Made by a program: the position numbers and the translations under genes. This document shows, piece after piece, positions 25,693-28,796 of a DNA stretch of 64,000 bases. Under the pieces are notes generated by a model. That model made no database searches. It was not told the origin of the DNA and worked only from the letters and a program-made list of their open reading frames with translations. The stretch comes from an uncultured Pseudomonadota bacterium (GTDB lineage Bacteria > Babelota > Babeliae > Babelales > CAIQNR01): positions 104,156 through 168,155 of the forward strand of contig CAZRXF010000001.1 of NCBI GenBank assembly GCA_964604015.1, written 5' to 3'. How positions within the stretch are numbered: position 1 is the stretch's first letter; each line of letters starts with the position of its first letter.

Positions 25693-26172
25693 TTAAAGAT
25701 CTGTTTCAAAATGCAAAAAGATGGGAACTATAGCTCCATCAGGCCTTGTATACTGGTGAACTGGTTGGTGGTGAAATCCACAAAGTGTCGTTCTATGTCC
25801 AGATTCACCACTATCAGGGGCAAAAAATGTAGCAATAACTCTTTCAAAGGCACTATTTTTTGGTTCTTTTTTTCGAAGATATTCGATGAGTTGTGCAAGT
25901 GTAACGATTAGTTCGTTTCTTTGTAATAAAACGTCCCCCGGGAAAAAATCGAAAGGTTTTGTTTTTTCAGGAATGGAGTCTATGCGTCGTCCAAATCCAT
26001 AAAATGGTCTTCCTACTATCGGTTGAATTCTAATATGAGCTCCCTCTCGCATCAGGTCCCAATCTTCGCTCATAACCTGTGTGAGAAAATATCCACCTAC
26101 TGGTTGTGCGGTGGCTGTATGAATGACTCCGGATACAAAAAGGAATGAAGCAAAACAAAATTTTTTAATCAT
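25693..26172 (-). CDS. Small secreted protein, member A of the six-gene paralog array
   Basis: 159 aa with the signal peptide MIKKFCFASFLFVSGVIHTATA. It carries the family C-terminal motif (VIATFFAPDSG). Its start overlaps the upstream stop as ATGA (26169-26172). Confidence 0.65.
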   Translation of the reverse strand: MIKKFCFASFLFVSGVIHTATAQPVGGYFLTQVMSEDWDLMREGAHIRIQPIVGRPFYGFGRRIDSIPEKTKPFDFFPGDVLLQRNELIVTLAQLIEYLRKKEPKNSAFERVIATFFAPDSGESGHRTTLCGFHHQPVHQYTRPDGAIVPIFLHFETDL

Positions 26173-26660
26173 GACGTTTTTTTCCTTTTTATTCGCGCCG
26201 TGAAAAGGATACTTGCTTCTTTTCCCTCTTTGGATGCCATTTCGTACATGCCACGGTAGTCAAACTTGGTGAGCGTTGAGTCGTTGTGAAAAAAAAGTTC
26301 TTTAACGATTTCAAACTCAGGTCCGTGTCCGATTTGATCTGCGCTTTTTCCTAAAAGTCTGAGAAAATGGGTAAGTGACATTGCGATTTTTTTACCGGGC
26401 AATTTAAAAAAGACTTGTTCAGAGGAGTAGATAAGGGGAGCCCCATTTGGTCTTTCCACCCGTATCCTTACCGTGTCAGGTCCTAATTCGCAGTCACGAC
26501 GTTGTTGTATTTTTGGTTCACACTCGTCTGAGAAAACGGCTACCTTTTTGAGGAGGTGTTGTTCTATCGCTAGTCTTTCGTTTGCAGTGTACATTGGTGC
26601 AGGAAAAAGAAAGATGCACAGAAGAAGCCCTGTGCGATACGTCATCATGCTGTTTTTCAT
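26169..26660 (-). CDS. Small secreted protein, member B of the paralog array
   Basis: I moved the start to the ATG at 26660 (MKNSMMTYRTGLLLCIFLFPAPMYTA), which overlaps the upstream stop as ATGA (26657-26660). It has the blocks RIRVERPNGAPLIYSSEQVFFKLPGKKIAMSL and IVKELFFHNDS. Confidence 0.65.
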   Translation of the reverse strand: MKNSMMTYRTGLLLCIFLFPAPMYTANERLAIEQHLLKKVAVFSDECEPKIQQRRDCELGPDTVRIRVERPNGAPLIYSSEQVFFKLPGKKIAMSLTHFLRLLGKSADQIGHGPEFEIVKELFFHNDSTLTKFDYRGMYEMASKEGKEASILFTARIKRKKTS

Positions 26661-27247
26661 GATGGGTGAACAGATGAAGGGGGTACAAAAAAGAGCCATA
26701 TACTATCTCCTGCAAGGCTGTTTTCTACTCGATAACCACGTATCGAGGAGTATGAAAGATTTTGTAACGTTCTGTCACCATTAAAAAAAAGTTTTATGAT
26801 CTGTTCAATGAAAGGACCTCCTGTTTCTGGTTCAGGAATCGGTCCACCGAGAAGATATTCATAGATGAGCCTGAGTGGAACAACCTGTCCCTGTCCTATC
26901 GGAAAATGAATGAGGTGTGAAGTCAGAGAAACGCGGAAAGGCTGTGTGATGGTGCGGTGAAGGTGACTGTCTCGGGAAACAGTACCTTCTGGGCCGGAGG
27001 TAAAACCGAGTCCCTCAAGGCCGGGTTGTAACAAAATGTAAGGTGTGAAATTTCCGAGACATATTGAAAAACTTCCTTTGATTTGAGTGGCAGGAGCGAC
27101 AATAGAAAAGACGTCTGTATTGAATTCAACAGGCATTCCCCAACCATTATATTCGCCTGTCCAATCGGGTAATACTATTTCGTTATTAGGAACTCCTGAA
27201 TGCGCTATAAAGCATATCAAAAAGATTACGTACCATTGCTTTTTCAT
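26657..27247 (-). CDS. Small secreted protein, member C of the paralog array
   Basis: 196 aa with a signal-like MKKQWYVIFLICFIAHSG. It aligns by eye with member D (GSFSICLGNFTPYILLQPGLEGLGFTSGPEG against GNFSLSLGDKPQITMRTGFQGIGFVTREG) and has IIKLFFNGDRTLQNLSYSSIRGYR. Its start overlaps the upstream stop as ATGA (27244-27247). Confidence 0.65.
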   Translation of the reverse strand: MKKQWYVIFLICFIAHSGVPNNEIVLPDWTGEYNGWGMPVEFNTDVFSIVAPATQIKGSFSICLGNFTPYILLQPGLEGLGFTSGPEGTVSRDSHLHRTITQPFRVSLTSHLIHFPIGQGQVVPLRLIYEYLLGGPIPEPETGGPFIEQIIKLFFNGDRTLQNLSYSSIRGYRVENSLAGDSIWLFFVPPSSVHPS

Positions 27248-27819
27248 ACTTGTTTTTCCCCCAGTTTTTTAATCTTTGGATACAGGAGTACATAAAAATC
27301 AGATGGTCTTGTCGAATTTTGATCGCGGTACCCAAGAACATTTGAATAGGAACAACTACTCAAGTCGTTTGGTCCATTAAAAAATTGTTGGATTACAAGA
27401 TCAGCCAAGGGATCTTTCTGCCCTTTTACATGGGCGTGAACTACTGTGAGTGGTACCAAGTAAGATGTTCCAACGCTATCAACAAAGTTATCGACAAAAA
27501 AGAGTATGTTCTCTGGATCAAGATCAAAGGTGAAAGCGTCTCCTGTAAGCTGCAGTTTAGAGTCAACCGTACGCAGTTGCCCTTCGCGCGTTACAAAACC
27601 GATGCCTTGAAAGCCGGTGCGCATTGTTATCTGTGGTTTATCGCCGAGAGAAAGGGAGAAATTCCCTCGTAGCTGGAATAATGTATAAATCAGCCCACTG
27701 GGGAATTGAACTGTTTTTCCAGCAATTGTCGCATAGTCTGAAGGATCACCAAGGTGCATGAATGCAGAAAGTTGGACCTGGGCTAGAAAAAAAACAAACA
27801 GCAGTGATTTTTTTGGCAT
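27244..27819 (-). CDS. Small secreted protein, member D of the paralog array
   Basis: 191 aa with a signal-like MPKKSLLFVFFLAQVQLSAF. It has the motif VIQQFFNGPNDLSSCSYSNVLGYR. Confidence 0.65.
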   Translation of the reverse strand: MPKKSLLFVFFLAQVQLSAFMHLGDPSDYATIAGKTVQFPSGLIYTLFQLRGNFSLSLGDKPQITMRTGFQGIGFVTREGQLRTVDSKLQLTGDAFTFDLDPENILFFVDNFVDSVGTSYLVPLTVVHAHVKGQKDPLADLVIQQFFNGPNDLSSCSYSNVLGYRDQNSTRPSDFYVLLYPKIKKLGEKQV

Positions 27820-27834
27820 AGAGGCCCTTCAGCT

Positions 27835-28272
27835 TTATTGGCGGCCAGTAAACAAAACACACCGTGGAGAGCCATCAAAATTTTCCACGTTAAAAATCTG
27901 GAAATAATCAAAGTTGTTCCTTACGTACTCCTCGACGCTTTCGCCTGCTTGTCGTTCCTTGTTTTTGAAAAAGAGACGTTTAGCCTGATGAGACTTTTCT
28001 GTTTCCTTGTTTTGTTGTGCTGAGTGCATAAAAGCACAAAGCGTAAGAGCACTATTTTTTGAAATTTGTAGAAGAATGGCTCCAGGTGGATAGAAAAGTT
28101 CAGCGCCATTAGCCTTCGTTGCTGTTATGCCTATTTGATTATTCCAGATCTTCATTTGGCAAAGGGCAAAGGTACCATTTATACGCCAGCCAACCTCTTG
28201 TTGAACTTCTGGAGCCTGTGCGGCATAAGCACTTGCTGAAACGAGAGCGAAAAAAAACAAAAATTTTTTCAT
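27835..28272 (-). CDS. Small secreted protein, member E of the paralog array
   Basis: 145 aa with the signal peptide MKKFLFFFALVSASAYAAQA. It has the blocks IGITATKANGAELFYPPGAILLQISKNSALTL and KRLFFKNKE. Confidence 0.6.
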   Translation of the reverse strand: MKKFLFFFALVSASAYAAQAPEVQQEVGWRINGTFALCQMKIWNNQIGITATKANGAELFYPPGAILLQISKNSALTLCAFMHSAQQNKETEKSHQAKRLFFKNKERQAGESVEEYVRNNFDYFQIFNVENFDGSPRCVLFTGRQ

Positions 28273-28307
28273 GTACTAACCTTTAATTTTAAAATGGCAC
28301 AGCCGGA

Positions 28308-28796
28308 TTATTTTCGCGCTCGCCTCTTTTCTGTTTTCTTTGCGGCAAAAACAATACCTGGTTTATCTGAATTGTCTAGATCGGCTATAAAAGCAGCCCT
28401 AAAAAAGAATTCTTTACATGCACTCTCAGAAGTATTCCCATTAAAAAAGGATGTAGCAATTGTAGAGAAATGTGGATTTCGTTCTTCGTTGCGAGTCATA
28501 ACAAGATGCGTGAAATACAAAAGAGACATAACTTCACTAGATCTGGGAATTTTTAAAAAAACTATGTCGGCATCGCAGATGAGTGGATCTTTACGGGGTC
28601 GCGTAATTCTAATGAAAAAGGCATAGGGCTGGGATTTTTTGTATGTCGTTCGTTGTTCCATCGTGACAACATGGCCTTCGGGAAGTTCTTCTCGCAGCAG
28701 GACACCGCGGCGTTCCTCTTGGTGCGAATTGGCTGGATGGCAATCGACGGTGGACGACAAGAAAAGTATGAGCAATGATCGCCGCACAGTCTTCAT
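28308..28796 (-). CDS. Small secreted protein, member F of the paralog array
   Basis: I moved the start to the ATG at 28796 (MKTVRRSLLILFLSSTVDC). It has the blocks FIRITRPRKDPLICDADIVFLKIPRSSEVMSL and IATSFFNGNTSES. Confidence 0.6.
   Translation of the reverse strand: MKTVRRSLLILFLSSTVDCHPANSHQEERRGVLLREELPEGHVVTMEQRTTYKKSQPYAFFIRITRPRKDPLICDADIVFLKIPRSSEVMSLLYFTHLVMTRNEERNPHFSTIATSFFNGNTSESACKEFFFRAAFIADLDNSDKPGIVFAAKKTEKRRARK

Follow-up and report, generated by a model that had tools for sequence, protein, structure and literature searches.

The 64,000-nucleotide stretch analysed here (the window) carries, between a prolyl-tRNA synthetase gene (proS) and a xerD-type recombinase gene, an array of six small genes, A to F, which occupy positions 25693–28796 as consecutive and intact open reading frames (ORFs) of the minus strand. 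We find that these are real genes, and that they belong to a clade-restricted family of small alpha+beta proteins, of about 130–180 amino acids (aa) once mature, and synthesised with Sec-type signal peptides. This family has no name and no earlier description, and its predicted fold finds no match in the PDB. Its proteins diverge far faster than those of the flanking genes, and the slot that houses them has undergone repeated remodelling through tandem duplication, through gene loss or decay, and probably through recombination. The reading that we favour, and that we hold to be rather probable, is that of an accessory, rapidly diversifying, Sec-exported family seated at a plasticity hot spot, whose members would act singly at the envelope or at the host interface.

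The first evidence comes from the slot itself. The relatives of the window's prolyl-tRNA synthetase (ProRS) are metagenome-assembled genomes of the phylum Dependentiae (TM6/Babeliales), whose members are obligate intracellular parasites of protists, and the array is found with identical sequence on metagenome contigs (up to 193 kb) from several independent samples. This population is present, among others, in ERZ27282915, ERZ27282891, ERZ27283013, SRR6837569 and SRR22388231. The gene order proS-xerD-dnaN(-recF) is phylum-wide, proS and xerD usually lying 0–350 bp apart with nothing between them. The family is confined to a sub-clade in which ProRS shares at least 85% identity with that of the window, almost always in the proS-xerD slot; none of its members was found in the proS-xerD gap of Dependentiae with a ProRS at most 77% identical, where unrelated small signal-peptide ORFs stand instead. 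The slot holds no copy in L009 and L052, one in L040, L042–45 and L049, two in L041, five and a 57-aa remnant in L046–48, at least five in L050, six in the window and at least one in L053. Such a range, from zero to six copies among close relatives, points to a dispensable, fast-changing set rather than to a fixed six-part machine. The remnant (L046:7749-7919, likewise in L047 and L048) is an ORF fragment located between family genes 1 and 2 which scores 21 bits (E=5e-5) with the hidden Markov model (HMM) of the family; from this match it is probably a decayed member. We also observed a dispersed member outside the slot, at L053:1010-1444: this 144-aa protein has a signal peptide and the motif VIEYFFGD, and its gene adjoins YmdB-like and membrane-transporter genes.

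Paralog types can be followed from one lineage to another. Protein C is 49% identical to the product of gene 2 of L050 (P0013) and D 56% to that of gene 3 (P0021), while C and D are only 29% identical to one another: being nearer to the L050 genes than to each other, they indicate that the paralog types predate the lineages. E is 31–34% identical to genes of L040 and L041. Altogether the C/D, E and F types are kept across lineages; L040 retains the E type only, L049 the F type only, and the L046 array also holds a lineage-specific trio.

These distributions bear directly on the function first proposed for the array. The preliminary description had noted ATGA stop/start overlaps on the minus strand at 27244–27247 (C/D), 26657–26660 (D/E) and 26169–26172 (E/F), and reading of the sequence confirms the three of them, the D/E overlap holding only with the start of E at 26660. 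From them it proposed a coupled production of the six paralogs in fixed ratios, hence possibly one hetero-oligomeric extracytoplasmic structure. Like translationally coupled hetero-oligomer operons the array is co-oriented, with three overlaps and otherwise very short gaps (35 nt between A and B, 15 nt between B and C); the overlaps are enriched in it, with three of its five junctions against 4 of 35 elsewhere in the window; and a fold common to paralogs is a frequent basis for hetero-oligomers. However, relatives with nearly identical flanks carry zero, one or two copies, and the homologous arrays of L046 (five copies) and L050 (at least five) have gaps of 30–420 nt and not a single ATGA overlap. 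In addition the paralog types were lost independently, as seen above for L040 and L049, and ATGA overlaps are a genome-wide habit, found at 7 of the 40 same-strand junctions of the window; they are thus neither specific to the family nor kept in its homologous arrays. Co-conservation of the full set of subunits was not found: the relatives keep 1, 2 or 5 members, in differing combinations. Since the copy number (0, 1, 2, 5 or 6) varies in the same slot, no fixed subunit set is conserved and the main prediction of a hetero-oligomer fails, so that we judge this structure very unlikely. The ATGA overlaps would rather reflect the compact operon style of the genome than an obligate stoichiometry.

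The comparison with L041, the two-copy relative, shows how sharply the divergence is confined. The flanking proteins of L041 and of the window are nearly the same (amino acid identities of 98.5% for ProRS, 95.6% for the CsaA-like protein and 94.4% for XerD), and by blastn their DNA is about 89% identical up to position 28798, 2 nt before the start codon of A, then 89% again from about 25802, a position within the 3' end of F. Between these two breakpoints (variable region 25802–28798) the two sequences either fail to align or are about 70% identical, and L041 has two genes only, whose identities with E and F are 34% and 49%. The nonsynonymous divergence (dN) reaches 0.48–0.65 for the family genes, against 0.009–0.03 for the flanks, whose synonymous divergence (dS) is 0.26–0.66; within the family dN/dS is 0.25–0.42, with dS saturated. 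We conclude that these are real genes combining a protein-level constraint with an extreme divergence, with which positive selection, the recombination of old alleles and a partly relaxed constraint are all compatible.

Could the array be evolutionary debris, that is duplicated orphan ORFs drifting under relaxed selection and without current function? The zero-copy relatives, the 57-aa remnant of the L046 array, a family dN that nears the dS of the flanks and the decay apparently under way in the neighbouring CsaA-like gene all speak in this direction. On the other hand the six ORFs are intact with their signal peptides preserved, the within-family dN/dS stays below 1, and a confident fold is predicted from the co-variation of just 14 sequences; moreover the array recurs identically in independent samples and its C/D, E and F types have persisted in different lineages. 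We consider debris an unlikely explanation.

That A to F are diverged paralogs of one family is well established for five of them by profiles, and for F through its orthologs. By pairwise blastp we obtained E-values of 7e-15 for C-D, 1e-9 for A-E, 5e-6 for B-E and 2e-3 for D-E, values which are valid only for a six-protein database. Each protein was also left out in turn, and a profile HMM built from the other five was scored against all ORFs of the window. The genes are, in their order along the minus strand, A (28308–28796, minus strand, 162 aa, 37 bits by this leave-one-out test), a short-form protein of the A/E type with a basic C-terminal tail and the motif IATSFFNGN; B (27835–28272, minus strand, 145 aa, 30 bits), also short-form; C (27244–27819, minus strand, 191 aa, 24 bits), the first long-form protein (C/D type), with an insertion bearing GxGF; D (26657–27247, minus strand, 196 aa, 39 bits), likewise long-form; E (26169–26660, minus strand, 163 aa, 50 bits), again short-form; and F (25693–26172, minus strand, 159 aa), of a type of its own and adjoining xerD. 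F gave just 9.5 bits (E=0.044), which is marginal, and was still the best match outside the training set. Its membership is secured because the six-protein profile matches, library-wide, two F-like proteins, P0017 (1.8e-7) and P0018 (2.4e-5), which are themselves 49% and 33% identical to F; the former is gene 2 of L041 and the latter the sole gene of L049.

The shared motifs tell the same story. The C-terminal motif h-x-x-x-FF (h, hydrophobic) reported in all six proteins is indeed there, and its FF pair shows no variation, or hardly any, among at least 20 aligned members of the family. Together with the leave-one-out profiles and the outside F-like proteins, it confirms the paralogy first noticed. 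The second block reported for four proteins, IRIxRPxGxPL...VFxKxP...MSL, is clear in A and E, weaker in B and only partial in F. C and D are, as had been stated, the closest pair among the six; they have the GxGF-containing insertion in common, and F carries it as well. Among 20 aligned members the columns conserved in at least 60% of the sequences are I, F, L, L, F, F and L only, and no conserved polar or catalytic residue was found in this alignment.

The family could not be placed in any named domain by its first description, and all our searches agree. Pfam, NCBIfam and PADLOC give no match near threshold for the six proteins, nor does Pfam for 20 family members; the family profile has no match among PDB sequences, and Foldseek finds none for the AlphaFold2 model in the PDB or in BFVD. 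When 1.84 billion (1.84e9) cluster representatives were scanned exhaustively, HMMER returned, beyond the window's own proteins, seven clusters (P0013–15 and P0017–20), all of them metagenomic; it found no member of the family in cultured isolates. One more candidate, P0016 (2831 aa), was rejected, as it is a fn3/Fib_succ repeat protein and its match covers only poorly aligned N-terminal columns of the profile. A word-indexed protein search with alignments of 6 and 18 sequences retrieved nearly exclusively self matches, this method being insensitive for such a family, and a scan of genome contigs with protein D alone gave no match, after which ProRS was used as the syntenic anchor.

For mature D, AlphaFold2 with a 14-sequence alignment gives a predicted local distance difference test score (pLDDT) of 75, about 90 in the core, and a predicted template modelling score of 0.73. 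In this model the first 32 residues are disordered and residues 33–178 form a compact alpha+beta domain, in which a beta-meander is followed by three strands, a pair of helices and a last pair of strands; a long helix (residues 122–137) ends in the invariant FF. For mature E, with 6 sequences, the pLDDT was 52 and the model is unusable. A new fold, in a slot that would be a dedicated diversity-generating locus of the parasite-host interface, is a more ambitious interpretation that we regard as tentative and rather unlikely. Recombination would there exchange ancient, highly diverged alleles and paralogs among strains, and frequency-dependent selection would maintain them, much as happens at capsule, O-antigen or antigenic-variation loci of bacteria.

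As to export, the preliminary description assigned a Sec-type signal peptide to each protein, and a heuristic prediction agrees. We required for a Sec type I peptide a positive n-region, an uncharged h-region of about 7–15 residues, small residues at -3/-1 and cleavage within about 15–30 residues. According to hydropathy (Kyte-Doolittle) and charge, the six N-termini all satisfy this heuristic, each with an n-region rich in K or R, a hydrophobic core free of charges and a cleavage motif of small residues, e.g. ATA/Q, YTA/N or, for the classic signal peptide of B, AYA/A (the slash marks the cleavage); the motif is the least clear in A. Inspection of the six N-termini for a lipobox ([LVI][ASTVI][GAS]C, with Cys at roughly positions 15–35) found none: the tetrads ending in Cys, namely TVDC for A, FLIC for D and LLLC for E, each have a disallowed residue at -1. 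Some L046 homologs do carry LLSC or LIAC, with Cys at 12–13, too early for a lipobox.

In the favoured reading each copy would be exported alone via Sec to the periplasm or the surface, and possibly onward to the host, a route already proposed for the numerous signal-peptide orphans of Dependentiae. At the envelope or the host interface it would bind a partner or form a coat, with no enzymatic activity; the copies would be individually dispensable and under diversifying or frequency-dependent selection. We place the action at this interface because of what the window encodes elsewhere and of how comparable proteins are viewed. The window has a 371-aa protein with a signal peptide, ankyrin repeats and a RING finger (20310–21425, minus strand), and a 308-aa protein, also with a signal peptide, whose C-terminal RING-variant (RINGv) domain is exactly at the Pfam cut-off (31485–32411, plus strand); both are candidate effectors of the host ubiquitin system. 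In Chromulinavorax destructans, another member of the phylum, 44% of the coding sequences have signal peptides, and this set shows an excess of ORFans of unknown function, which are seen as putative effectors (PMC6561590). With about 44% of signal-peptide proteins in the phylum, orphans such as A to F are expected. They resemble those ORFans by their Sec-type N-termini, the want of recognisable domains and a presumed role in the periplasm, at the surface or in the host; they differ from them in forming a defined paralog family, not described in C. destructans, with one conserved slot and a varying copy number.

Several points weigh against this reading. That some genomes have no copy, and others a pseudogene remnant, makes the family a dispensable one; the call of export comes from a single signal-peptide heuristic, and about 26% of ORFs are positive by such a crude test, signal-peptide proteins being so common here that export by itself says little on host targeting. 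No relative, by sequence or by structure, points to a binding partner. Finally, the saturation of dS in the family genes makes their dN/dS ratio unreliable, and the high dN could stem from relaxed constraint and not from positive selection.

Small proteins such as Ivy, MliC, PliG and ecotin neutralise host hydrolases. Could the members of the array be periplasmic inhibitors of this kind, or immunity proteins against competitor toxins, multiplied and diversified by an arms race? They are indeed small signal-peptide proteins in which only hydrophobic core residues are conserved, their copy number varies and they diverge rapidly. They moreover adjoin a XerD-type recombinase, and their content varies between strains, as in rAID-1, the XerD-associated orphan-immunity arrays of Bacteroidales (bioRxiv 10.1101/471110). 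In the definition of rAID-1 a XerD-like recombinase, element-specific and located 5', is followed by at least two co-oriented genes of mixed immunity families, with repetitive, integron-like intergenic sequences and a GC content below that of the genome (bioRxiv 10.1101/471110). The array departs from it: xerD is 3' and in an ancestral position, being present where the array is not, the genes form a single family, no attC-like inverted repeats or common intergenic repeats were found among the array junctions (-4 to 35 nt), and the GC content (0.42–0.43, against 0.41–0.47, about 0.44, elsewhere in the window) is not skewed. Besides, Foldseek linked the model to none of the inhibitor or immunity folds known from the PDB, and Pfam gave no match. 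We thus take an inhibitor or immunity role for improbable.

Alternatively, the neighbouring tyrosine recombinase might capture the genes as mobile cassettes and shuffle them, in an integron-like or XerD-driven way. Small co-oriented genes abutting a tyrosine recombinase, a content differing among relatives and a homology breakpoint with L041 falling sharply at the start codon of A would suit this idea. But the junctions are too short for attC-like or other repeats, and the genes are mutually paralogous and not a mixed set. The recombinase (24761–25672, minus strand), which the array reaches after 20 nt as described at the outset, is best as XerD/XerC: with NCBIfam models it scores 290 bits for XerD, below the 329.6 cut-off, passes for the tyrosine recombinase subfamily (281 against 279) and obtains 120.8 bits for the integron integrase, whose cut-off is 265. 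It is syntenic phylum-wide, and because the proS-xerD-dnaN order is found even without the array, the adjacency of xerD is inherited synteny. An integron-like or rAID-1-like cassette array is therefore rejected on the combination of these features, and we give cassette shuffling hardly any credence.

The accessory exported family of the favoured reading is a familiar kind of locus: a lineage-specific, tandemly expanded and fast-evolving exported family of an intracellular bacterium. Among obligate intracellular bacteria, tandem secreted or surface families are found in the plasticity zone and Pmp proteins of Chlamydia, in msp2/p44/omp-1 of Anaplasma and Ehrlichia and in the effector paralogs of Legionella. 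Like the plasticity-zone families, the array consists of exported tandem paralogs between housekeeping genes, whose copy number and sequence differ sharply in close relatives. Unlike these families, with which they have no relation in sequence or fold, the proteins have small soluble-looking alpha+beta domains and are not autotransporters or beta-barrel porins; and the array has no sign of an expression site with pseudogene donors, nor of phase variation.

Some details of the gene starts condition what precedes. Gene A begins with the ATG at 28796, preceded by the Shine-Dalgarno sequence AGGAAAGG at 28811–28804 with a spacing of 7 nt; the mechanical choice of a TTG at 28847 would have the reading cross a terminator-like hairpin (28818–28845, minus strand, stem of 11 pairs followed by a T-run), which lies between the tRNA-binding gene and A, about 20 nt before the start of A. 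This hairpin is also present in L041, the homology extending through it, and raises the question of how the array gets transcribed. Depending on the pipeline the DNA of A is annotated as a 162-aa gene or as a 73-aa fragment; we rejected the latter as a mutated version, since the DNA is identical and the difference one of gene calling. For E an alternative ATG at 26699, preferred by several or most gene callers, would give 176 aa, and the start at 26660 gives a canonical signal-peptide n-region.

On the upstream side the slot is anchored by the conserved proS (29221–30636, minus strand), between which and the array stands the CsaA-like tRNA-binding gene (28935–29210, minus strand, with a remnant frame to 28869). 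It is cut short to 91 aa by a premature TAA at 28937–28935, where L041 has CAA (Gln92) and an intact protein of 112 aa; the last 21 codons past the TAA are still in frame. As L052 has two in-frame stops in this gene and L009, L040, L042, L046 and L049 lack it, it appears from these sequences to be decaying across the clade. Downstream, a 223-aa ORF (24145–24816, minus strand) overlaps the 3' end of xerD; its N-terminus resembles a signal peptide or transmembrane segment, it has a second hydrophobic segment, and neither Pfam nor NCBIfam matches it. L042, L046 and L049 likewise have a gene of 204–243 aa between xerD and dnaN, where this ORF stands.

Other small, putatively exported proteins were encountered in the slot of distant Dependentiae and around the homologous arrays. 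The former (L010:2435-2674, L025:11400-11684, L012, L018 and L027) often has unrelated ORFs of 80–188 aa with signal-peptide-like N-termini, two of which have the motif YLKxL..CC in common, so that orphan genes for exported proteins may quite generally come to land in the proS-xerD slot. At L047:309-2608 four signal-peptide paralogs (176, 169, 176 and 174 aa) were considered as relatives and rejected on a hhalign probability of 0.1%; two of them have the C-terminal motif VFFKDYPK.

Elsewhere in the window we observed three small signal-peptide-like ORFs of 160, 163 and 206 aa (2620–4301, plus strand, with an ATGA overlap at 3099–3102), which match neither Pfam nor the HMM of the array family; two DUF5122 beta-propeller proteins of 493 and 492 aa with near-identical N-termini (47219–50273, minus strand); two YmdB-like genes with an ATGA overlap at their junction (37290–38914, minus strand); and three membrane-protein paralogs with matching N-termini (34431–37203, minus strand). 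The GC skew turns from positive to negative at about 38000–40000, with a cumulative peak at about 38 kb and mostly minus-strand genes on both sides; this switch could be a replication landmark.

What is new in this family, compared with those already known, is its fixed chromosomal address, the polymorphism from zero to six copies in near relatives, a confident structural model, and the refutation, in its main prediction, of the stoichiometric complex; in this respect ATGA overlaps in compact genomes should be handled with caution and not be taken as the sign of such complexes. Dependentiae are widespread, almost uncultured and known mainly from genomes, and nearly half of their proteins are signal-peptide orphans. 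The locus makes a tractable example: with a housekeeping gene on either side, the slot lends itself to amplification or to recruitment from metagenomes, and is usable as a strain marker; it also offers a test bed for host-driven diversifying selection on orphan exported proteins of TM6. If an interaction with the host were shown, A to F would found a new effector or surface family, and if not, they would be an ordinary lineage-specific expansion. Should the slot be the diversity-generating locus tentatively considered above, a repertoire of zero to six copies would help to set the host range of these bacteria or their evasion of protist defences.

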